Shown here: piece by piece, positions 1-12,502 of the stretch
Numbering within the stretch: position 1 is the stretch's first letter
Layout: every line of letters starts with the position of its first letter
DNA from: a virus
Lineage: Duplodnaviria; Heunggongvirae; Uroviricota; Caudoviricetes
Length of the DNA stretch: 12,502 nucleotides
Reading direction: 5' to 3' (one strand)
Virus record (IMG/VR): IMGVR_UViG_2698536590_000008
Span: 1 to 12,502 of that record
The notes under the pieces: model-generated
Told to the model about the DNA's origin: nothing
The model's input: the letters and a program-made list of their open reading frames with translations, nothing else
The model's database searches: none
Position numbers and translations under genes: made by a program

Positions 1-2289
1 ATTCCCGGGGCGGTTCAACATGATGCCTAGCCTTGATATGGTTTTCTTATCTGATTCTGGAAGTGAGTTGTAAAACGAGCGCCAAGCAGAAGAGCGTCTT
101 ACAGTTGTGTCAACGATGCTTTCTGGTGCTTGTTTTACTGCCAGCCTTGCTGCTTTCTGGAATTCTGGTGAGCTAATTAGCTTTTCTGCAGATTCAATTG
201 ATTCAGCGCCGCCCATCGCCCTGATTTTGCTGGCGACTTTTGCCCCAATTTCTGACCCAGCAACAGCACCTACTGCACTGAACGGTCCTGACACAGTTGA
301 ACCAACCGCAGTGCCAATGCGTTGGGCATGGTTAGCAACAAATTCATTTGCCGCAGTGACGCGATTAAACCGTTTGACGAACTCGTTTAGTCTTCCTGTA
401 GTTATCTCGTAAGATTTTGCGTCTTTGATAGCCTTTGCGACCTTATATACATCGTTCAGACCTGACATAGTCTCTTTTGGTAAATATCGGGCAAGATTGC
501 GCATCTGCCCGTTTGCTAACATGTTTTGATACCAGTCAGCAAACCCTGCAGGATTAAAATCAGCGCCACGTTTTCCGTTCGAAAGCATATCCCGAAGACC
601 TGTTCCCAGTAGCTCGGTTCTTAGCTTCCTGGACGGCGTGTTTTGCATCAATTCACGAAATCCTTTGGCATCGCCTTTCGACATTGCCTGTAGTGCTGTA
701 GTTGCTTTGCGAGAAACATCACCGTTCAGCGTTCTGCCAGTTAGATTAATCATTTGCTCTTCCATGCTTTTTCGCATCTGAACAAGCCTCTGAGCAACTT
801 CAAAATCACGTAATGCATTTGTCTCTGACAGCGCCGCCTTTTGATCATCGGCGAGCGAACCGTAAAGCCTCGATAAAGCAGCGCGATCAGCATCTTTATA
901 TGGTCCAGAATTCTTATGAAGTGCATCACCAACAAGTCGTCGTTGCTTATTGAGATTTGCATAAGTTAATGCGCCGTTCTTGCCTGGATTAACTGCCCGA
1001 AAGACTCTCTTTTCAATAGGGTCAAGGTTTTTCATCCCGCCAAGATCTTCTGCCACCTGTTTGAGCATTGACCTTGTTGATGGCGCATCAATTTTTGCAC
1101 CTGCAGGCATCGCCTTTTCAACATTGCGATAAAGCTGGTCGCTTCGTTTCATCAGCGCAGACATTCTTCCATTGACCGTATCAATAAACTTGTCGCTCAT
1201 ACCAAGAGCATCTTTTGCACCGGAAACGCGATCAATTATCTCCCCCGCGCCCTGTGCTAGCTGCCTGATTGCTTCATTTTCCTGCACCTGTAGAGCAGAA
1301 CCCGCACGGGACTTGATTGCTTGCTCAACTGCCTTGTATTGCTCGTTCCCGGAAAAGTGTGAAGGGAGTAATGAATCAACATTAAGCCTTTCAGCAGACT
1401 CCAGAACTTCAGCCTGAGGATTGATATCTAGTTCATCAAGCGATGAAGCGAGATTTGGCCTTTTTTGTGCTGCTACTGTGCGAACGACTTCCTCTGGGTT
1501 CCTCGTCGCAGGAGTTATTGGTACACCTTGTGCTACTCTTGCCTCTGCGGCATGAACCGCAGGATTTGTTGCTGCAGCGGCATCACCGGAGAATGGTGAT
1601 GTTTCTGTTGGCGCAGTGGTCGCTCTCTGTACAGATGTTTTATTGCCACTAATTATATTTGATGCACCACGAACACCACGGGTAACGCCATTTATCAGGC
1701 CATGCGTAGCAATGTTAAGTCCGGCATTAATAGCGGCATTTTCGGCAAAATCACCCCGTTGATTCGCCGCGTCAGCGAGAGAACCAATGACCATGTTTCC
1801 AGCTACACCTGCTCCAGGAACAAGATAACCGCCTATTGACTCTCCAGCTTGCGCATACGGATCCGTTGGCCGGTTAACTGGTCTATATACTTCATCAAGA
1901 ATCTTTGGTCCATCAAAACTCTGAGATGCGGCATTAATGAGACTCGCCCCCCCCTGAAGAACGTCAAAAGGAATATTTACAAATCCTCTTACCGCCTGCT
2001 CGGCAATTTGACCTACGCTTTGCCCACCTGTTAGCCATTCTCCTGCACGCTGCATAAGTGATTTGTCTTGCTGAATGGTATCAGGAGATTGCCCTACTTC
2101 CTGCTGTTCTGTCTGCATTGAAGGCAATGGATAGGCATCATAGAAAGCTTGCTTAGCCTGCTCTGCATTTTCTCCGGCTTGCGGGGCCACGACTTCATTG
2201 AAGTATTGCTCCTGAGCCTGCGCTTTTTGTTCTGGTGCTAACGCCTGATACTGTGGAGAGGCGATAACATCTTTCCATGCTTTAGCCAT
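1..2289 (-). CDS. DNA ejection/transfer protein at the P22 gp16 position; C-terminus runs off the window edge (more than 762 aa present)
   Basis: Checked codon by codon: minus-strand frame is open for all 763 codons from ATG at 2289-2287 (overlapping the upstream stop as TAATG) down to position 1, with no stop; this is why it is absent from the ORF track. N-terminus [24 protein letters not shown]. Assignment rests on position directly after the gp7-like and gp20-like genes. Longer than the roughly 600 aa I recall for P22 gp16. Confidence 0.6.
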
Positions 2290-3584
2290 TAATCACCCCA
2301 TAGTGAAGAAAAGTTACTGCCAGCAGGAGATTGTTGTCCTGGCGTATTCTGTACTGGCTCCTGATAATCAAACTGTTTTTTAACAGTGCTCAACTTGCTT
2401 TCAAGCTGATTTCTAATCTTTCCGATAGAGTCACGAAAAGCCTTTTCACTCATTTTGGGGCTTAGGGCACCAACCGCATCGGATAATTTTTTACCCTCAG
2501 CATCTGAAAGAGCACCCATACCCTTCAGGGACTGCACCATAGGAAGGAATGTTTGAGCTTTAAAGGTGTCGAGCCTTGCTTCAAAGTTAGCCGCATCAGA
2601 GCCAGGAACTGTCGGAAACGCTGAGCGAATTCCTACTGCTTTTGAAAGGCCGGGGCTTTGCTCTATCTCGTTGAGAGAATCAAGCGCGGTGCTGAACGTA
2701 TCAACTGCACCCTGAGCGGCGGCCTGCCTGTCAGCGCGGGCTATGTCAGCCTTTTGCCGAACATCTGCCTGTTTCTGTTTTAGCTCTTCAAGCTTTAACT
2801 GATTGCTTTCTCTGGCTATCTGTCTGTCCAGAGCCTTTTCTTGTAACTCTGCTCTTTGTATTTCTCGGGAAAGAGCAGCATTCTGTGCGCTGATGTTCTG
2901 TCCACGTATCTGGATGTCCTGACCTCGAGCTGTTAGTGCTTCACCTGCCTGATTGCTGCGGATTGTCTCTGCCAGCCTGCCTCGGTCAATTTCACGACCA
3001 GCCATCTTGTCCTGAACATTGAAGTAATCAATCGGACCAAGCGCAGCCATCCCAAGGTGATCAACAAACTCACCAAATCCTGAAGGATTCTGCTGATACA
3101 TCTGAGCAACGTTATTAGGGTTAACACCGACGCGCGCCAGCTCATTGGCGTTGTTTTGCAGCCATGATTGCATTGCTTCTGGAGACGAGGCCGCAAGGCG
3201 TGCGCCAGCCGCTAAGGTGCCGATAGAATTGCGCTGGTCTTCATCAATGAATCCCATGCCTTTACGAACGGATTCAATCTGGTCTGGATATTGAGTAGCC
3301 AACTGACGCAAAGCACCGCGATCACCAGACGCATAAGCATTAGCGTATGCCTGCTGAAATTCTTTCTGCCGCTGAGCCTGCTTTTCCTGCTGAAAAACAC
3401 CCGCAATACCAGAAAGACCTTGCAAAGCAGTCAGCCCAACATTGTTAGCGCCTGAACGCTCAATATCATTGTTCTGCCTGATAAGCTGAAGCGTATTGCC
3501 GATGTCATTTACGCTCGGAGCGTTTGAGTTGACGCCGCCGATACCAGCCAACAATCCGCCATTTGATCCTTGCCAAGTAGCCAT
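2289..3584 (-). CDS. DNA ejection protein, P22 gp20-like (431 aa)
   Basis: ORF track 431 aa; Gln/Ala-rich with a long charged coiled-coil-like middle segment; position between gp7-like and gp16-position genes as in P22; SD-like AAGGGG upstream of the ATG; stop overlaps downstream start. Confidence 0.65.
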
Positions 3585-3593
3585 GATTACCCC

Positions 3594-4286
3594 TTAAAAC
3601 AGTGAACCAAGCAGACCAAGACCAGCACCGATACCAGCACCCCACGGAGTTGATAGCTCGAGAGCACTGGCTATGCCACCACCCAAAAGCGCACCGGATG
3701 CAGCACCACTAACACCCTGCTGCAATGCTGACGGTCGGTTGGCATTTGCCGCCGCCAGCGCCGCGCTTTGCTGTGAAATCTGACTCATGTTGTTGGCATA
3801 TGTCTGCCCCGCGTTTGCCTGACCTTGCAGTGCGCCAAGCCCAACGTTTGCCAGATTGTTGTAATTGCTCATCTGATTTGATAACCAAGACTGACCGAGT
3901 GTCGGCGCGATCGTAGCCAGTTGATTGCTTGTAGCTGTCGAACCAAGTCCACCCGTCGCCTCCGCAGCAGCAAGACTCTGGTAACGCGCCTGATCTGCAA
4001 GGTCTTTATACTGCTGAGAGTTGTAATACTGATTAAGTGCCTGCCCCTGACCTTCTAAACTGGAAAGATTCTGCAACTGGTTAACATACTGCTCCGCAAG
4101 AGGCGTGAACGGAGCAAGGTTTTTCATGATCGTCTGCCACTGCTGATTTTGCAGGTCTGCTGCATACTTCTGAGCTTCTGCGGCATACTTTGCGCTTTTA
4201 TCAGAACTGCCGCCTTTCCCACCCTTTTCAGGGCAATAAGGTTCCTCGCCGCGCAGTTTTCTGCCCAGCGTAAATGCATATAACAT
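3594..4286 (-). CDS. DNA ejection protein, P22 gp7-like (230 aa)
   Basis: ORF track 230 aa; size matches P22 gp7 (about 229 aa); low-complexity Q/N/A/G-rich sequence with a Gly-rich hydrophobic C-terminus; canonical position between gp14-like and gp20-like genes. Confidence 0.65.
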   Translation of the reverse strand: MLYAFTLGRKLRGEEPYCPEKGGKGGSSDKSAKYAAEAQKYAADLQNQQWQTIMKNLAPFTPLAEQYVNQLQNLSSLEGQGQALNQYYNSQQYKDLADQARYQSLAAAEATGGLGSTATSNQLATIAPTLGQSWLSNQMSNYNNLANVGLGALQGQANAGQTYANNMSQISQQSAALAAANANRPSALQQGVSGAASGALLGGGIASALELSTPWGAGIGAGLGLLGSLF

Positions 4287-4288
4287 GG

Positions 4289-4744
4289 CTATCTCCCGTG
4301 ATTCAGGAAGTCGATTAGTTCTTCGCGTGTGGCGCTGTAAAACGTCACGTCATCCACGCCTTTGAAGTATTTCTTGATGGTTCCTACACGCTTAAGGCCA
4401 ATCATTGCGCAGTACATCTGCCCGTGGCGGAATTTGCGTGCAGCGAACGATGTGACGCACTGAACGGTGGTGTTAGTCAGAATGTATCGCCAGAACGCCA
4501 GACCGATTTCCTTGCTGAATCCACGAACCTCTGGCAGGTACATGGCGTGGCAATCGAATGTCAGCGGCTGAATCTCCTGATAGTAAACAATGCCGCCGAA
4601 CTGCCCGTGCACGTTCACCTCAAAGTAACGGCAATCAGGTTTGTAGTCGTATCCATCACCGTTGTTGCTCCCGGCAATAATGTCAGGGTGATTTCCGACT
4701 GCTTCGATCAGGTCGATGTTTCGCGTTGGTTTGAACTGAATCAT
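4289..4744 (-). CDS. P22 gene 14-position protein (151 aa), function uncertain
   Basis: ORF track 151 aa; start ATG overlaps the stop of the needle gene (TAATG at 4742-4746); called by position between tail needle and gp7-like gene. Confidence 0.5.
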   Translation of the reverse strand: MIQFKPTRNIDLIEAVGNHPDIIAGSNNGDGYDYKPDCRYFEVNVHGQFGGIVYYQEIQPLTFDCHAMYLPEVRGFSKEIGLAFWRYILTNTTVQCVTSFAARKFRHGQMYCAMIGLKRVGTIKKYFKGVDDVTFYSATREELIDFLNHGR

Positions 4745-5592
4745 TACTGCTCCGCGATTATCTTGATGGTTGTGGCAGTAAAAGCCGCACCATTAGACTG
4801 AATGGTTAACGTACTGCCATTTGTGGCAAGAAAGCCGTCTTTATCCACGCTGAAGAACGTAGCTAACAGGATGTTGTCGGTTGTTGTCGCCGAGTTACGA
4901 CTGCTTACCAGAGTGTCAGGAACAGATCCGGAAAAGGTTAGCTGCATTGACCTGTTGGCGGTTCCGCTGGGCCACGTCCCGACGATCGACAGCTTGAAGA
5001 ACAGGGTTTTGTTCTCGTTGAACACAACCATCTTGTTGTTAACGGTGTCGAAGAATGGTGCCAACGTGCCGGATGACGGCGTGAGCGTTTTCAGCAGGCT
5101 AACAAGGTTGGTCGGCGCTGTCGGGATGGTTACAGATACGCCAGAGTAAACAACCTCTGACTTTTTGCGAGTAGTGGCATACTCCAGAGCATCGATGCGC
5201 GTTTCATGGTCTGAAACCTGCGATTCCAGCGACTGAACTCTGGTATCAAGCGAGGCAATATCGCTTTCATTCTGAGCTATTCGTGTTTCATGTTCCTGAA
5301 GAGTTGATTCTGCCTGGCTGATTCGCTCCTCATGATTAACAAGCGTTGCTTCCGCAGCAGAAATTCGCTGCTCATGGTCAGCGAGAATCACATCCTGCTC
5401 ATCGTTCCTGACCTGTGCATCATAAGCGCCCTGTCCGGCCTCGTTGGCCTTGTTAGCCACGTTACCAACATCAGTGCCCTGTGCGATAACGTAAAGCAGA
5501 TACGACTGCGAGAAGATATTGCGTGGAAGGACTGATGTGTCGAGCCGTGTAGCCTGAATGATTACCGGCACATTGAGATTAGAATCCGCCAT
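4744..5592 (-). CDS. Tail needle protein, P22 gp26-like with Sf6-type C-terminal knob (282 aa)
   Basis: N-terminus [43 protein letters not shown]...NDEQDV..ADHE closely matches the P22 gp26 N-terminus as I recall it; followed by heptad-like coiled-coil repeats (HEQRIS, HEERIS, HETRIA, HETRID); 282 aa with a non-P22 C-terminal domain, as in Sf6/HK620-type needles. Confidence 0.8.
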
Positions 5593-7022
5593 TACTCAAT
5601 CCTTATCTGAGCACCAGACAGAGTGACAGGTGACTTCGTGATAACGCGCAATTTGAAGCCGACATTTTTCCTGATGCGCCCTACTCGCTTCCACAAAACG
5701 CGTTTGTCGTAAACGAACGGTTCATTCTGCTCAATCATCTGCTCACGCCCGTAATTTATGCCGTCAGTGGTTGCAGAGAGAAAAAGGCGGTCAGCATACT
5801 GCGCAACTCCAGTTGACGATTCAACTTCAAGGTCGAAAACTCTGGCGTTATCCGCTTTGAACAGAGGAGTAAACAGCAGATGTTCCTGTTGCTTGTCGTA
5901 CTGGCTGCTGATGTCGAATTGCAATTTCCCGGTCACCGATTCCAGTTTGTCGCCGCACGTTATCTGATTTCCTTCGTAAATGAAGTCGATAGCGCGGTAC
6001 ACATCGTCATACAGGCCTGTTTTCAACACACACCATTGCGGACCATTGGCGCTTGAAGATGCGTCGTACACGAGAACATGGCGCGGAAGGTGGATAATCA
6101 GCAACTCATGAGCATCAAATCGCAGCGATTCCATCACACCATCAGCCAGTTCATCAGCAGTGTAGGAGCGGAGGATTTTCTCAATGCTCGCGCTGGCGAT
6201 TGGTGACACCTGACCGGAGCCGATGATGTATACAGACGGCGCACCTGTTGCCGGATTGCTGATGAACGCATACGAGTCAGCAAACGGCGTTTTGCAGTAA
6301 GTCCCGGCAATGCCTTTCTGCACCATCAGCGATGGCTGTGCGACATACAGAGCAGCCCCAACAGTGGTTGCACCAGTCAGGGAGAAATATTCAATCGTCG
6401 ACGAACCAAAGCAGACTATGAAGTCTCGCCATGTACCTATGCCGATGATGCCGTCAGGCTGCGACTCTGCACGATATTGTGCGCTGTATCGGTCAGGATG
6501 CGATTCGTCTTCAAGGTCAGTGATAAACCATGAATCAGTTCCGTCTTTTGACCACGCATAACGCCCACGTAAGCGCGTAATGTCGCGAACCGAACCTAAC
6601 TCATACTGCGTAAATCCGCTGTCTGTAGGCCAGTTTGAGACGGTTTTAACCGTGCCATCATAGCGATACTCAACCAGTTGACCATTAACGCCTACAGCCT
6701 GAGATGTTCGACCATGCGCCATTGATACGCGACCACTTCCGGCGACGTCACCGACTTCGCTTTCGCCTTTGTAGAGCTTGCCGCCACACACACGATAGAC
6801 AGCATTCTGCGCCATGTTGTACTCGACGCCGCGCGATACACCGTTCACATCAGAGCGTTTGGCAATGCCCGGGAATGAGCGAAGATATCCGCTGCTGTTC
6901 AGGATTTCTTTGGGGGTTGCCAACATATTCACTGGCAGATAGTCGATATAGTCGGCGTTTCGAAAGTCTTTGCCGACACCTTTCATAAGCGGAAGTTGCT
7001 GAAGAGGAAGAGTGTAGAGCAA
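5592..7022 (-). CDS. Tail hub / head-completion protein, P22 gp10-like (476 aa)
   Basis: ORF track 476 aa; [40 protein letters not shown] and length match P22 gene 10 product as recalled. Start is TTG at 7022, the first start codon after the in-frame TAA at 7071-7073; the first ATG is at 6986-6984. Stop overlaps the needle gene start. Confidence 0.8.
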
Positions 7023-7186: not shown

Positions 7187-7318
7187 ATGATTTACGCAAT
7201 CGCGGGAGGCGCTCGCATGGGTGCCTTCCAATTAAATGAATCTTTACTTGAACGAATCACCCGTAAATTACGTGACGGATGGAAAAGAGTTGAGGTCTTA
7301 TTATGCGCAATGAAATAG
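7187..7318 (+). CDS. cIII: CIII-like protein (43 aa)
   Basis: ATG at 7187 with AAGGA SD 7 nt upstream; translation MIYAIAGGARMGAFQLNESLLERITRKLRDGWKRVEVLLCAMK contains the ESLLERITRKLRDGWKR core I recall from lambda CIII; below the ORF-track size cutoff. Confidence 0.7.
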   Translation: MIYAIAGGARMGAFQLNESLLERITRKLRDGWKRVEVLLCAMK

Positions 7319-7455
7319 CCATCAATCACCAGATGCTTCGTGCTGCACAGAACAAAGCAGTAATAGCCCGATTTATTGGTGATTCAAAAATGTGGCTTGA
7401 AGCAAATAAAGCGATGAAATCAGCTATCAACCTTCCGTGGTATCGCAGGAAATGA
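7303..7455 (+). CDS. kil: Kil-like host division inhibitor (50 aa)
   Basis: ATG at 7303 with GAGG SD 6 nt upstream, overlapping the cIII 3' end; MRNEIAINHQMLRAAQNKAVIARFIGDSKMWLEANKAMKSAINLPWYRRK resembles the IATFIGDEKMF segment I recall from lambda Kil; position cIII-kil-recombinase matches the lambdoid PL operon. Confidence 0.55.
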   Translation: MRNEIAINHQMLRAAQNKAVIARFIGDSKMWLEANKAMKSAINLPWYRRK

Positions 7456-7530
7456 GTTTTACAGATAACTGGTCAGACGAAGAATTCATTCGTCAGATGA
7501 AAGAATTAATCGGTAACGAAGGAGATATTC

Positions 7531-7701
7531 ATGTCACTTGCAACCACAGTGAAGGAGAGCAAGTTACAGAGACGCATGTACACGCAGCAGGCGTTAATGT
7601 ATCGCCAGAAGGGAGATCGTGAAGGTGTTCGCGTATTTTTAAATGCGGCAAAGACTGAAGTATTAAATCAGCGTTATTTCCTTGGGCCATGTCCATTCTG
7701 A
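7531..7701 (+). CDS. Small early protein at the arf position between kil and erf (56 aa)
   Basis: ATG at 7531 preceded by a strong GAAGGAG SD at 6 nt spacing; ends 10 nt before the erf ATG. Competes with an overlapping alternative frame at 7452-7622 (see rejected list). Confidence 0.35.
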   Translation: MSLATTVKESKLQRRMYTQQALMYRQKGDREGVRVFLNAAKTEVLNQRYFLGPCPF

Positions 7702-7711
7702 GAACAAACAT

Positions 7712-8317
7712 ATGAGCAAAGAATTTTACGCAAGACTGGCAGCTATTCAGGAGAACTTGAACGCGCCAAAGAATCAGTACAACTCATTCGGCAAATATAA
7801 ATACAGAAGCTGCGAAGACATTCTTGAAGGCGTTAAGCCGTTACTGAATGGTCTGTTTTTATCAATCAGCGATGAAGTTGTGTTGATTGGTGATCGGTAT
7901 TACGTGAAAGCCACGGCAACTATTACCGATGGCGAAAACAGTCATACGGCAACCGCTCTTGCACGAGAGGAAGAAAGCAAGAAAGGAATGGATTCTGCAC
8001 AAGTTACGGGAGCTACAAGCTCTTATGCACGCAAGTATTGCCTCAATGGTTTGTTCGGCATTGATGATGCGAAAGATGCAGATACAGACGAGCATAAACA
8101 TCAGCAGAACGCAGCAGCAAAGCAATCAAAACCATCACCTACACCTGAACAGGTTCTAAAAGCATTCACTGACGCAGCAATGCAGAAAAACACCGTGGAA
8201 GAGCTTAAACAGGCGTTCGCCAAAGCGTGGAAGATGCTCGAAGGCACACCGGAGCAGCACAAAGCGCAGGACGTTTACAACATCAGACGAGACGAATTAG
8301 AAGGAGCGGCTGCTTAA
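7712..8317 (+). CDS. erf: Erf single-strand annealing recombinase (201 aa)
   Basis: ORF-track protein from internal ATG 7712: MSKEFYARLAAIQENLNAPKNQYNSFGKYKYRSCEDILEGVKPLL...ATITDGENSH...SSYARKYCLNGLFGIDDAKD matches P22 Erf as I recall it. The track's upstream extension (TTG 7682) is unlikely to be the start. Confidence 0.8.
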   Translation: MSKEFYARLAAIQENLNAPKNQYNSFGKYKYRSCEDILEGVKPLLNGLFLSISDEVVLIGDRYYVKATATITDGENSHTATALAREEESKKGMDSAQVTGATSSYARKYCLNGLFGIDDAKDADTDEHKHQQNAAAKQSKPSPTPEQVLKAFTDAAMQKNTVEELKQAFAKAWKMLEGTPEQHKAQDVYNIRRDELEGAAA

Positions 8318-8700
8318 TGGCACATTCGATTACTGTAAGACTAAACAAGCCCGCAAGAGAGTTTCAGGCCGGGGAAAATATCGGATTCAACATCCGTGCT
8401 GGCGTTCAGTATTACGATCGCCAGACAAAAAAGAAAGAATGGACAAACTACAGCGCCGTTGTATTTGCCAAGCCGGGAGCGCAAGCGGATTACTACCGTA
8501 GTGTTCTTGTTGAAGGTGGCATTGTGGAAATTACCGGAGAAAACATCAGGGTTGATGTTTATCAGGGGCAAAATGGTCAATCAATCACTCTTGAATTACT
8601 GAATGCAAAGATTGGATTTGCAACTTCAGGAAACAGCCAACAGCAGCAAAGTAGCAATCATCAAAATCATCCTGAATACGACGATTCAATCCCCTTCTAA
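8317..8700 (+). CDS. Single-stranded DNA-binding protein-like (127 aa)
   Basis: ATG at 8317 overlaps the erf stop (TAATG) with AAGGAG SD 10 nt upstream; OB-fold-like core (WTNYSAVVFAKPGAQADYYRSVLVEGGIVEITGENIRVDVYQGQNGQSITLEL), a Gln-rich linker and the acidic tip DDSIPF typical of bacterial SSB C-termini (compare DDDIPF). Confidence 0.65.
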   Translation: MAHSITVRLNKPAREFQAGENIGFNIRAGVQYYDRQTKKKEWTNYSAVVFAKPGAQADYYRSVLVEGGIVEITGENIRVDVYQGQNGQSITLELLNAKIGFATSGNSQQQQSSNHQNHPEYDDSIPF

Positions 8701-8723
8701 AGTAGCAACATAAGGATTCCATT

Positions 8724-9020
8724 ATGCCAGCGCCTCTGTATGGTGCGGATGACCCGCGCCGCTGTTCCGGCAATTCCGTATCGGAGGTGCTGGATAAATT
8801 CAGGAAAAACTACGATCGGATAATGTCGCTACCGCAGGAAACGAAAGAGGAAAAGGAATTTCGCCACTGTATATGGCTTGCAGAGAAAGAAGAACGAGAG
8901 CGAATTTACCAGACATCAATCCGACCATTCCGCAAAGCAACATATACCCACTTCCCTGAATATATCGACCCGCGCCTGCGTAATTACCGCTCACGCTATG
9001 GCGCTATCAGTAATGACTGA
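8724..9020 (+). CDS. Hypothetical early protein (98 aa); position and size comparable to P22 Abc2 anti-RecBCD, unconfirmed
   Basis: ORF track 98 aa; ATG at 8724 with AAGGA SD at 6 nt; directly downstream of the erf-ssb pair, where P22 carries its abc genes. I cannot recall Abc sequences well enough to confirm. Confidence 0.5.
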   Translation: MPAPLYGADDPRRCSGNSVSEVLDKFRKNYDRIMSLPQETKEEKEFRHCIWLAEKEERERIYQTSIRPFRKATYTHFPEYIDPRLRNYRSRYGAISND

Positions 9021-9030
9021 GGAATTAACA

Positions 9031-9321
9031 ATGAAAACAATGAAGCTAAACATCGACCTCGGAAAATACGTTATTACCGGAACAAAACACGATCTGATTC
9101 TTAGCGAAAGAGGAATTATCAAAGAAGGCGAGAATGCAGGGAAAGAAACACTAAGCCGTATCGGTTATTACAGCAAGTTTGAGCATCTGGTTAAAGAGTT
9201 ATGCAACCGTGAAATCCTGTTATCTCAGGCGCAGACGCTACAGGATATTCAGCAACATATCGAGACTTTAGGTGTGTCACTTAGCATGGCTATTGACCAG
9301 TTCGTGGAGAGTAAATCATGA
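9031..9321 (+). CDS. Hypothetical protein (96 aa)
   Basis: ATG at 9031 with GAGG SD 8 nt upstream; in frame with track ORF 8878-9321, whose 5' extension overlaps the preceding gene and is unlikely; product [22 protein letters not shown]... Confidence 0.5.
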
Positions 9322-9485
9322 GAGGGCTTGCATACAATCCCGGCATTCTTCCGGCAGAAATGATTATTCGCCAACGCGTAAAGCCAATGCCATCGAGAGA
9401 GGAATTGCTTAAGAGAAATTCTTTTCCATCAGTGAATCAAAACAAATATCTGAATGCGATGTGGCGCAAAGGAGGCAGCCAGTGA
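9318..9485 (+). CDS. Hypothetical small protein (55 aa)
   Basis: ATG at 9318 overlaps the previous stop (ATGA); product [55 protein letters not shown]; fills an otherwise unexplained 160-bp gap; below the ORF-track cutoff. Confidence 0.4.
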
Positions 9486-10126
9486 ATAACCGCTTTTACA
9501 TGATGTGCTTGCGTGAAACTGTGGGTAATAACGCTTCATTCCATTGCCATAACGGCAATGGTTACAGTTCTAATATCGATCGCGCTCATGTTTACACGCT
9601 GGAAGAAGCCCAAAAAGCCTGGAATTGTGGTCGAGATATCGATCAGCCTGTTTGCGCTGATAGCGTGGATGCAATGGCTGTGTGGCACGTTGATTGCCAG
9701 TACATCCCTACAGAAAACCTGATTGAGCCAGATTGCACTGCGTATGTGGCCTACAAAAAAGGTAGCTGGAACGGCAACGATGTTTACTGGCTTCAACACG
9801 GTGGATTGCCAACAGATGACTTCAGTAAAGCGACCATCTTTAGCGTCGCCAACAAAAACGAACCAGGAATAGTTTGGTTGCCATTTTCCATTGCTGATTC
9901 AGCAAAGCGCCGGACGTTCAATATCAATAACTTTAACCGCAGAACAATGGTTCAGGGCGCAGGTTTGGTCATGCCTGACTGGTTGAAAAAGCAGAACAGA
10001 AGAAAGAAGTCGCGAAGCGGGAAGGTGCGTTGGAATTGTCCGCATTGCGGAAAAATCACCTGGCAGCACAACCCATATGATTTTGAAGGCTGTAGTGATT
10101 ACAACTGTGAAGGATGGCGAGAATGA
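9482..10126 (+). CDS. Cys/His-rich protein with C-terminal zinc-ribbon motif (about 214 aa), unknown function
   Basis: Track ORF 9461-10126; preferred start GTG 9482 (AAGGAGG SD at 7 nt, overlapping the previous stop), or ATG 9500. C-terminus [44 protein letters not shown] has a basic patch plus CxxC...C....C; N-terminal half has several Cys/His. Confidence 0.55.
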
Positions 10127-10670
10127 CAATTGACTATCAGGCACTGCGTGAAAAAGCAGAAAAGCAACGTGTGGTGTATGGTCGCTCGAATATGGAGAGG
10201 AGAGATTTGATGGTGATGATGCACTAATTCATCGCGAGGCTGCTGGATATATTCCCATTTGCAGAATTGAAGGAGCGCATCCAGAAAGCGGTTTCGATGA
10301 AGATTTCCAAATGGAACAGCAGGCCAATGCTGAATTCATCGCCGCAGCCAATCCAGCTACCGTGCTGGCACTACTAGATGAAAGGGAAAGAAACCAGCAA
10401 TACATCAAACGCCGTGACCAGGAGAACGAGGATATTGCGCTAACGGTAGGGAAGTTGCGCGTTGAGCTTGAGGCAGAAAAACAGCGGGCAAAGGATCTGT
10501 TTATGGAAAATGCTCGGCTTAAGTCAGGTATAGCCGGTCTGATACACCTCGGTATTCGATATGCAGATGTTGAGGTCATGAAAATTGCTGGAGATGCCCA
10601 GCTTTCTACCCCATGCACTGACAGCATCATAAACAGCATTGCAACAGGCATTCGCATCAAAGGAGAGTGA
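10123..10670 (+). pseudogene. Ead/Ea22-like protein gene, apparently disrupted by a 1-nt frameshift
   Basis: ATG at 10123 (overlapping upstream stop) opens a 34-codon ORF ending at 10227; a second frame is open from 10152 to 10670 (track ORF 10311-10670). One added A in the A4 run at 10160-10163 joins them into a roughly 183-aa protein [20 protein letters not shown]...EFIAAANPATVLALLDERERNQ..., which resembles prophage Ead/Ea22-like proteins from memory. Confidence 0.45.
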
Positions 10671-10671
10671 T

Positions 10672-10935
10672 ATGGCAACTTTGACAAAAAAGGAACAGGC
10701 ATGGTTGAGCGAATTACAGAACGTTCTTGATCGCTGCCCGTCACCGAAAAAAATTGGTTTTTACACCATTGGCGATAAAAGCATTTACCTGTATGACCTA
10801 CGCCGCATGGATGAAATCATGGAGGCTCTTGATAATCGTTCGTCAATGGATTGGTGTGTTGCTGTCCATGATATGAATGCCGGATTTGAAGAAAAGATTT
10901 TGTTCCCCTCGTCAGTTGAAAGCACTGCGGGTTAA
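10672..10935 (+). CDS. Hypothetical protein (87 aa)
   Basis: ATG at 10672 with AGGAG SD at 6 nt; in frame with track ORF 10639-10935; product MATLTKKEQAWLSELQNVLDRCPSPKKIGFYTIGDKSIYLYDL... Confidence 0.5.
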   Translation: MATLTKKEQAWLSELQNVLDRCPSPKKIGFYTIGDKSIYLYDLRRMDEIMEALDNRSSMDWCVAVHDMNAGFEEKILFPSSVESTAG

Positions 10936-10945
10936 GGAGTAACAC

Positions 10946-11590
10946 ATGACCACTATTACCAAAGAACGTATTGAATTGTTCATTAAAAATCCGCTTGAAA
11001 ACGGACTTACCCGTGGCGAACAAATGGAACTGGCACGGATTGCACTGGCATCACTGAAACGCGAACAGATTCGCCACGAGCATGCCAAATGGTCTGACTC
11101 CACATTTGGCTGCGTTGGCCCCATTGGTCCACTGAAACACCTCTCAAAAGAGGCACTGGAAGCCGCAGCCGAACCAGACGATCTTAGCGAGTGGGCTGAT
11201 ATGCAGTTTCTGTTGTGGGATGCACAGCGCCGTGCTGGCATCAGCGATGCTGAAATTACCGCTGCTATGGAAGATAAATTGAAGATTAACATGGAGCGCC
11301 AGTGGCCTGAACCAAAAGATGGTGAGCCTCGCTTGCACATTAAAGAACCCGGCAACTCTCCGGTAACTCCGGATGGTTGGATAAGCTGTAGTGAGCGAAT
11401 GCCTGAAATTAGACAAACAGTTATTGGATGGAATGGATATGCAGTTAGACAATGCGTATATACAAGGAATGGATACGCCAAGACACAGAAAGGCAGAGAG
11501 CCAAGGTTTGAAACCTCAACTGGTATATGGCATGGAGTAACCCACTGGATGCCGCTACCAGAACCGCCGCAGGAGGTTAACCGCGGCTAA
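10946..11590 (+). CDS. DUF550/DUF551-type prophage protein (N-terminal dATP/dGTP pyrophosphohydrolase-like domain, C-terminal DUF551), 214 aa
   Basis: ORF track 214 aa; ATG with AGGAG SD at 6 nt; N-terminal region (HEHAKWSDSTFG...) resembles the MazG-like dNTP pyrophosphohydrolase domain common in enterobacterial prophages; C-terminus (PDGWISCSERMPE...GIWHGVTHWMPLPEPP) fits the DUF551 pattern. From recall. Confidence 0.6.
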   Translation: MTTITKERIELFIKNPLENGLTRGEQMELARIALASLKREQIRHEHAKWSDSTFGCVGPIGPLKHLSKEALEAAAEPDDLSEWADMQFLLWDAQRRAGISDAEITAAMEDKLKINMERQWPEPKDGEPRLHIKEPGNSPVTPDGWISCSERMPEIRQTVIGWNGYAVRQCVYTRNGYAKTQKGREPRFETSTGIWHGVTHWMPLPEPPQEVNRG

Positions 11591-11690
11591 CCTGCAACTT
11601 GCCGTCAAAGGTGAATAACAATCCTCGCACTCGCGGGGATTTCTTTTATCTGAACTCGCTACGGCGGGTTTTGTTTTATGGAGATGATAA

Positions 11691-11825
11691 ATGCACTTCC
11701 GAGTCACAGGTGAATGGAATGGAGAACCATTCAACAGGGTTATCGAAGCAGAGGACATCAACGACTGCTATAACCACTGGATGATATGGGCGCAGATAGC
11801 GCATGCAGACGTAACAAATATTTGA
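11691..11825 (+). CDS. Hypothetical small protein (44 aa)
   Basis: ATG at 11691 with GGAG SD at 7 nt; MHFRVTGEWNGEPFNRVIEAEDINDCYNHWMIWAQIAHADVTNI; followed 22 nt later by a strong hairpin terminator. Preferred over the TTG-initiated overlapping track ORF 11599-11784, which has no SD. Confidence 0.4.
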   Translation: MHFRVTGEWNGEPFNRVIEAEDINDCYNHWMIWAQIAHADVTNI

Positions 11826-11847
11826 TTTGAAGAACTGAAAGAACACC

Positions 11848-11872
11848 AAGCCGCCTGATGGCGGTTTTTTAT
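11848..11872 (+). terminator. Rho-independent terminator-like hairpin with U-tract
   Basis: AAGCCGCC (11848-11855), loop TGAT, GGCGGTTT (11860-11867) gives an 8-bp stem including one G-U pair, followed by a T6 run (11865-11870). Confidence 0.55.
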
Positions 11873-11884
11873 TGGAGACAAGAA

Positions 11885-12229
11885 ATGTCAGATTTGGCTA
11901 TGAAGGTTTTGAAATGGCAATCAACTGGCGATGTTGGCATCAGTAGCGCAACTCTTGCCTCAATCGCATGTGTACTGAAAAAGAATATCTATGGTCATCA
12001 CTTCGGCGCTCCCCATGACGCAGCCGATTTCAGACGATGCGTTGCACTTGTTGAGCAGATTCCAGAAATCAGAGATTCATTCAACAAGGTTGCAAAGCGC
12101 GTTCCGGCATTCAAAGGCATCCTCAACGAATGGGATTCTCTCGTTGCTCTGTTGAAGTCTGAAATGAAGATACACGGAAACAAAGCACCAGAGACTTACA
12201 AAAGAATCAGCGAGCTACGCAAGGACTAA
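11885..12229 (+). CDS. Hypothetical protein (114 aa), orphan gene bracketed by two hairpin terminators
   Basis: In frame with track ORF 11858-12229, but ATG 11858 lies inside the terminator loop; preferred start ATG 11885 with GGAGA SD at 6 nt. Product MSDLAMKVLKWQSTGDVGISSATLASIACVLKKNIYGHHFGAPHDAADFRRCVALVEQ...; no family recognised. Confidence 0.5.
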   Translation: MSDLAMKVLKWQSTGDVGISSATLASIACVLKKNIYGHHFGAPHDAADFRRCVALVEQIPEIRDSFNKVAKRVPAFKGILNEWDSLVALLKSEMKIHGNKAPETYKRISELRKD

Positions 12230-12269
12230 CCACAGTCTCACACTCGATGAGGCCTGTTCATATCTGATA

Positions 12270-12296
12270 GAGCCGCTATATGGCGGTTTATTTTTG
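12270..12296 (+). terminator. Terminator-like hairpin with U-rich tail, related in sequence to the 11848 hairpin
   Basis: AGCCGC (12271-12276), loop TATATG, GCGGTT (12283-12288) gives a 6-bp stem including a G-U pair, followed by TATTTTT; lies 40 nt after the stop of the 114-aa gene and 15 nt before the xis SD. Confidence 0.4.
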
Positions 12297-12310
12297 CCTG
12301 GAGAATTAAG

Positions 12311-12502
12311 ATGACCGATACCAGCCTGATTCCTGAGAAAGAAGTGATGAACAAGCTCGGTGTTTCATCACGTCAGACAATCTGGAACTATACCAAACGG
12401 CACGGATTTCCGAAGCCAGTCAGAACCCACCCCAAATCATACCTTCGTGAAGCTGTTGAAGGGTGGATTCTTAACGGTGGCGTTAATCAGAAATGCTCCT
12501 GA
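12311..12502 (+). CDS. xis: Excisionase / AlpA-family DNA-binding protein (63 aa)
   Basis: ORF track 63 aa; ATG with GGAGA SD at 6 nt; EKEVMNKLGVSSRQTIWNYTKRHGFPKPVRTHPKSYLREAVEGWI matches the AlpA/Xis HTH pattern (S..TIW.....G.FPKP.......W...E...WI); position at the distal end of the early-left arm, where xis precedes int. Confidence 0.6.
   Translation: MTDTSLIPEKEVMNKLGVSSRQTIWNYTKRHGFPKPVRTHPKSYLREAVEGWILNGGVNQKCS

Follow-up and report, generated by a model that had tools for sequence, protein, structure and literature searches.

The Ead/Ea22-like gene of the prophage element analysed here has lost a single adenine, and we consider it very probable that this is a genuine deletion (A5 to A4) in a dead P22/Sf101-like prophage beside sbcB, fixed as neutral decay in one clone of Escherichia coli. 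The window, i.e. the whole stretch of 12,502 nt that was analysed (IMG/VR record IMGVR_UViG_2698536590_000008), is part of a P22/Sf6/Sf101-like (Lederbergvirus) prophage, and its features are collected in Table 1. A sequence-only reading of this DNA had recognised the split gene and had left three causes side by side: pseudogenisation, a homopolymer sequencing error or programmed -1 slippage on the A-run. The first of these stands, whereas a sequencing error is made very unlikely by the recurrence of the same A4 on 16-18 contigs, and programmed slippage is left unsupported by the confinement of the allele to one near-identical lineage and by the absence of a full heptamer, an upstream Shine-Dalgarno-like element and a significant downstream structure.

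Table 1. Positions of the genes, frames and lesions of the window that are referred to in the text.
Feature	Position	Strand	Remark
Structural genes gp10, gp26, gp14, gp7, gp20, gp16	~7022 leftwards, within 1-7022	-	
Deletion junction	7007..7008	.	gp10 5' end (minus strand) fused into Sf101 gp32-like ORF just upstream of cIII
Early-left genes, in order: cIII, kil, erf, abc2, DUF5405, DUF2737, 214-aa ORF, Ea22-like	from 7187, within 7187-12502	+	
ORF upstream of the Ea22-like gene, 214-221 aa	9461..10126	+	no Pfam or NCBIfam family
5' fragment ORF, 34 codons + TAA	10123..10227	+	sequence; alignment A1; gene-caller product 34 aa
Open -1 frame	10152..10670	+	native Ea22-like coding sequence from 10164 on
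A4 run, site of the 1-bp deletion	10160..10163	+	relatives have five bases (AAAAA, AGAAA or AAAAG)
A_AAG tetranucleotide	10161..10164	+	GAA AAG in the ATG-10123 frame; created by the deletion
119-aa ORF called by gene finders	10311..10670	+	begins at first canonical start of the -1 frame
Genes after the Ea22-like gene: 87-aa ORF, dATP/dGTP-PPHyd + DUF551, AlpA/xis	within 7187-12502	+	
Downstream 87-aa ORF	10672..10935	+	own Shine-Dalgarno AAGGAG at 10660-10665, within the Ea22-like 3' end
dATP/dGTP pyrophosphohydrolase (PF04447) + DUF551 (PF04448) fusion, 214 aa	10946-11590	+	domain matches

The broken frame and its protein family

The two frames behave as the sequence-only reading had described them. 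Translation from ATG 10123 runs for 34 codons to a TAA at 10225-10227, and the -1 frame, closed upstream by a TGA at 10149-10151, is open from 10152 to a TGA at 10668-10670 (172 sense codons). In the short ORF, native Ea22-like sequence ends with codon 14 (10123-10164); the 20 codons that follow are read out of frame up to the premature stop. The -1 frame encodes KSRKATCGVWSLEYGEERF...GIRIKGE, of which ATCGVWSLEYGEERF...GIRIKGE is the native stretch, and carries no second lesion along its whole length. Extension of the A4 run, which is flanked by GCAG and GCAACG, to A5 fuses both frames into a product of 182 residues and restores the sequence REKAEK-ATCGVW, as had been proposed. A tryptic peptide of this restored frame would be ATCGVWSLEYGEER.

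An alignment with four E. coli orthologues (A1) locates the damage precisely: in its 5' part the gene differs by a single indel, a base missing from the window at the A4 run, where the relatives read GCAG-AAAAA-GCAACG or GCAG-AGAAA-GCAACG, with five bases in all four. This alignment, together with the Pfam match of the repaired protein, bears out the view that a one-base frameshift in an A-run has split an Ead/Ea22-like gene. In each of the close orthologues one uninterrupted ORF runs from the upstream start; a gene beginning at ATG 10311, the alternative that the sequence-only reading had allowed for, was not seen among them. A missing base in the first A-run (10151-10155) was also considered and is excluded, because two loci (L013 and L021) carry the immediate in-frame progenitor sequence GAAAAAGCAGAAAAAGCAACG, which differs from the window only by A5 in the second run. 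An antisense ORF at 10229-10744 (171 aa) was read as merely shadowing the coding strand.

The repaired 182-aa protein matches the Pfam family PF13935 (Ead_Ea22) with 117.2 bits over profile positions 2-139 of 139 (curated cut-off 27 bits), and the 119-aa fragment matches it with 82.3 bits. Because the repaired protein covers the whole profile and the 119-aa ORF only positions 54-139, the break falls within a single Ead_Ea22 domain, and the open -1 frame is no chance ORF; in addition to these positions the fragment spans the C-terminal region, and it lacks the N-terminal 63 residues. Over 180 residues, the repaired protein shares 97.8% identity with intact proteins of 183 aa from two IMG/VR loci (L081 and L023), whose DNA is ~96% identical to the window with a single gap. 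The orthologue in T28R is likewise annotated as intact, 183 aa and ead/Ea22-like, the name that RefSeq gives to the relatives. The gene lies where a member of this family is found, in the early-left region between erf/abc2 and xis/int and colinear with the early-left region of Sf101. Since the one-base deletion splits its ORF after codon 14, the locus is a pseudogene of the Ead/Ea22-like family and not a functional member.

Ea22 proteins combine a short N-terminal segment with a long coiled coil and a variable C-terminal domain (CTD), and the full-length protein of lambda is a tetramer, whose activity the CTD alone does not reproduce (PMC10834534). A C-terminal K/RGE motif is common to members of the family (PMC7093339), and pro-lysogenic activity and tetramers of the lambda, Phi24B and P27 proteins have been established by experiment (PMC7093339, PMC10834534). 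Deletion mutants of ea22 in lambda and Phi24B are viable, with a shifted balance of lysis and lysogeny (PMC7093339). Like lambda Ea22, the protein of the window would have ~182 aa, and it would end in the K/RGE-type motif of the family (IKGE); unlike lambda Ea22, its frame is broken after codon 14 and its C-terminal part is without a match to the lambda CTD. The repaired protein matched no NCBIfam model. Its C-terminal part is probably one of the mosaic variants of the family, because a comparison of the repaired protein with the PDB sequences, the lambda Ea22 CTD included, gave no match.

Among the four closest RefSeq orthologues that were sampled, three carry a pseudogene or partial flag from PGAP (L001 1565-1996, L002 1474-2043, L004 1493-1912), and the copy of A0 34/86 has a different 1-nt deletion near its 3' end (column 559 of alignment A1). 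The frequent flags have two possible explanations: either this mosaic family often decays in prophages, or domain shuffling causes PGAP to over-call partial genes.

The native start of the Ea22-like gene appears to be intact and translationally coupled, because the TGA of the ORF upstream overlaps its ATG (10123-10125) as ATGA. The product of this upstream ORF has a Cys-rich, zinc-ribbon-like C-terminus (WNCPHCGK...), and the ORF and the 5' part of the Ea22-like gene recur with 93-96% identity in P1-like and SJ46 phage-plasmids (H43-H47). Further downstream, the fusion of PF04447 with DUF551 close to the Ea22-like gene may illustrate module shuffling in the region, DUF551 being the C-terminal domain of one Ea22 variant of Stx phages (PMC10834534).

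One allele in one lineage

Our survey finds the A4 allele to be unique among relatives. Complete genomes of E. coli were searched with a 65-nt query across the site, counting copies that cover at least 80% of it: none of the 148 copies reaches 99% identity, and the best (98.5%) align 65 query bases with 66 subject bases, i.e. with a one-base gap. Nearly all of the listed matches among the 148 copies likewise span one subject base more than the query. A pattern allowing either four or five bases was found at no fewer than 119 loci in IMG/VR, and all 119 that were listed have five (AGAAA in 84, AAAAA in 33 and AAAAG in two). The pattern restricted to four bases had no match in IMG/VR or the JGI metagenomes, and a six-base pattern none in IMG/VR. 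Across these searches the in-frame state is the rule, and the site is no recurrent hot spot of indels. The locus also does not behave as a phase-variable one: the tract measures only 4-5 nt, A4 is present in all 16-18 contigs of the lineage, and the prevalence of AGAAA, which is no homopolymer, in most of the listed IMG/VR relatives counts against such variation. In a one-genome-per-species collection searched for either allele, no species-representative genome carries this Ea22 N-terminal pattern; the sole match, in a Chloroflexus MAG (L009, 3583-3611), is a chance agreement of 29 bases without homology to the window.

The A4 allele itself is reproducible across datasets. Looked up as exact sequences, the 119-aa and 34-aa products were recovered on 16-18 contigs from eight named datasets, namely one NCBI assembly, GCA_002535575.1 (NMAQ01000042.1), and seven SRA runs assembled by Logan (SRR32936742, SRR11391799, SRR11391800, SRR28636953, SRR28808192, SRR11484337, SRR12217746), and GCAGAAAAGCAACG, the A4 allele, is carried by every contig recovered with the gene. 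The contigs are very close to the window over long distances: L005 is 99.98% identical over 8.2 kb and L007 99.9%. A homopolymer error in sequencing or assembly, with an intact gene and A5 in the true genome, might be suspected at such a place, because the lesion lies in a homopolymer, the classic site of indel errors, and no other part of the gene is damaged. For systematic error of this kind, however, a run of 4-5 bases is short, the same A4 recurs in all contigs with the gene from the eight datasets, and a collection of ~15 billion proteins lacks the exact in-frame product of 182 aa, so that we regard an error as extremely unlikely. Because A4 recurs on 16-18 contigs, and the six further members of this set that were compared (L130-L135) match the window at 99.97-100% identity over up to 6.4 kb, A4 is best taken as a genuine mutation that has become fixed in a single near-clonal lineage, with a very small residual doubt that comes from evidence in the form of assembled contigs.

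Four independent Logan contigs (L132-L135) all end at window position 10413/10414, 186-187 nt past the premature stop. This shared break suggests that the Ea22 core is repeated in other prophages of those genomes and breaks the assembly graph there.

A prophage remnant beside sbcB

The surroundings of the gene are defective. On a longer contig of the same lineage (L005) the prophage continues with int, followed by E. coli sbcB, tsuB and tsuA, and this host flank agrees with E. coli chromosomes at 99.9% identity. Mapping against Sf101 reveals that coordinates 6986, seven bases into gp10, and 24394, inside gp32, abut at window positions 7001-7003, and that ~21.3 kb of an Sf101-like genome are missing: N, ral, the repressor, cro, cII and the genes for replication, nin, Q, lysis, terminase, portal, scaffold, coat and adaptor are lost. 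The start codon of gp10 was lost at the junction as well; P22 gp10 begins M-P-I-Q-Q, and the window differs there. The same junction is present in L005, L006 and L130-L132, but none of 5,426 complete E. coli genomes contains it, and their matches end at window position 7007. A scan for consensus promoters from the junction to the gene returned one weak site, against 6.6 expected in shuffles.

Because the ~21-kb deletion took N and the immunity, replication, lysis and head genes, the element is, to judge from its gene content, a dead prophage remnant, whose early-left genes appear to be left without their native promoter region and without the antiterminator. Expression of these genes would have been lost as a consequence.

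Decay, recoding or reuse

Replication slippage in a short homopolymer would be the simplest origin of the change from A5 to A4. The deletion shifts the frame after codon 14 and ends translation from the native start after 34 codons, which leaves the remaining 168 codons without a usable start, save a weak internal ATG that lacks a Shine-Dalgarno sequence. The ~21-kb deletion, in turn, took away N and all of the leftward early operon ahead of cIII, the part in which PL lies, and along with them immunity, replication, lysis, terminase, portal, coat and the start codon of gp10. A non-essential gene that tunes lysis and lysogeny would then have been without a selectable role, and its lesion would represent neutral decay fixed in the clone: loss of the Ea22-like protein should be neutral because the choice between lysis and lysogeny is no longer open to this prophage. 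The native start is expected, from its reading frame, to yield only a 34-aa peptide, and at best a poorly initiated 119-aa fragment would be made besides. Three points can be raised against a pseudogene: apart from its single lesion the gene is undamaged, as are its neighbours, so that the decay is young and the loss of function presumed; the A_AAG made by the deletion could still give some native protein through low-level -1 slippage, and the 119-aa ORF could in principle be translated.

As regards recoding, the deletion changes GAA AAA GCA to GAA AAG CA and thereby places A_AAG exactly at the lesion. If tRNA-Lys slipped back by one base here, from AAG to AAA, reading would go on with GCA ACG TGT and hence recreate exactly the ancestral AEK-ATCGVW, and A_AAG is the minimal -1 shift-prone site in E. 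coli (PMC5009743). If ribosomes were directed to slip here at a set ratio, A4 would be the functional form of the gene. Against this, the site reads A_GAA_AAG in place of an X_XXY_YYZ heptamer; no GGAGG/AGGAG-like sequence occurs in 10140-10160; the fold of 10165-10244 (-20.4 kcal/mol, z = -0.58) is equalled or bettered by 53 of 200 shuffles; and Rfam gave no match. The downstream sequence is the same in the in-frame orthologues. The frameshifted state is not conserved either: it is absent from the examined copies in complete E. coli genomes and from all 119 listed IMG/VR loci, and A4 is confined to a single near-clonal lineage, in an operon without N and everything upstream of cIII. Programmed frameshifting is thus unsupported, because a stimulatory RNA structure and an upstream Shine-Dalgarno-like element are lacking and the frameshift is not conserved, and we give it next to no credence. 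Runs of 4-5 A are, moreover, far too short for transcriptional slippage. The window lesion resembles the sites of dnaX (A_AAA_AAG) and IS1222 (G_CGA_AAG) in that it makes an A_AAG in the upstream frame, but unlike sites of that type it has no tandem heptamer, no Shine-Dalgarno-like or structural stimulator and no conserved frameshifted state, and any slippage at this place would be incidental and not programmed. Such incidental, low-level restoration of the native protein is plausible if an mRNA exists, because A_AAG is shift-prone and non-programmed -1 slippage is known to suppress single-base deletions in E. coli genes at ~1-10% (PMC10861913). It might be imagined that ~1% of ribosomes slip in this way, and that the allele is a leaky knock-down kept because the trace of protein acts, e.g. 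on co-resident prophages that share the Ea22 core; we hold this to be very improbable. If it were true, the locus would offer a minor case, from nature, of a 1-bp deletion being suppressed at A_AAG by non-programmed slippage.

Alternatively, the 119-aa product with its coiled coil and C-terminal domain might be made and kept for a function of its own, e.g. to modulate Ea22-like paralogues of other prophages through the shared coiled coil. Its ORF is intact and retains profile positions 54-139 together with the K/RGE-type ending IKGE (for the motif see PMC7093339), and the break of four assemblies at 10413/10414 may mean that these genomes contain the Ea22 core in further copies. Nevertheless, a recent lesion would leave this ORF intact anyway, and ATG 10311 is without a Shine-Dalgarno sequence (GAAGATTTCCAAATG) and lies 84 nt past the premature stop. 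Furthermore, the CTD of lambda Ea22 alone does not match the activity of the full-length protein (PMC10834534), and the allele is limited to one clone and resides in a promoter-deleted remnant. We therefore judge a functional truncation to be improbable.

The preferred reading, a deletion that became fixed as neutral decay, places the locus among the homopolymer-indel pseudogenes of cryptic and defective prophages. As in those pseudogenes, one base has dropped out of a short mononucleotide run, the prophage is without its regulatory and lytic modules after a large internal deletion, and the allele is fixed in one host clone; nothing of note differs, and with one small lesion so far the remnant looks young. 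This is ordinary gene decay, and neither a sequencing error nor programmed recoding. Its significance beyond annotation is small: the 34-aa and 119-aa ORFs that gene callers list belong together and are best marked as a single ead/Ea22-like pseudogene with a frameshift, and the element around them is best handled as the remnant of a defective prophage. As clonal markers of this lineage of E. coli, the A4 allele and the 7007/7008 junction are convenient.
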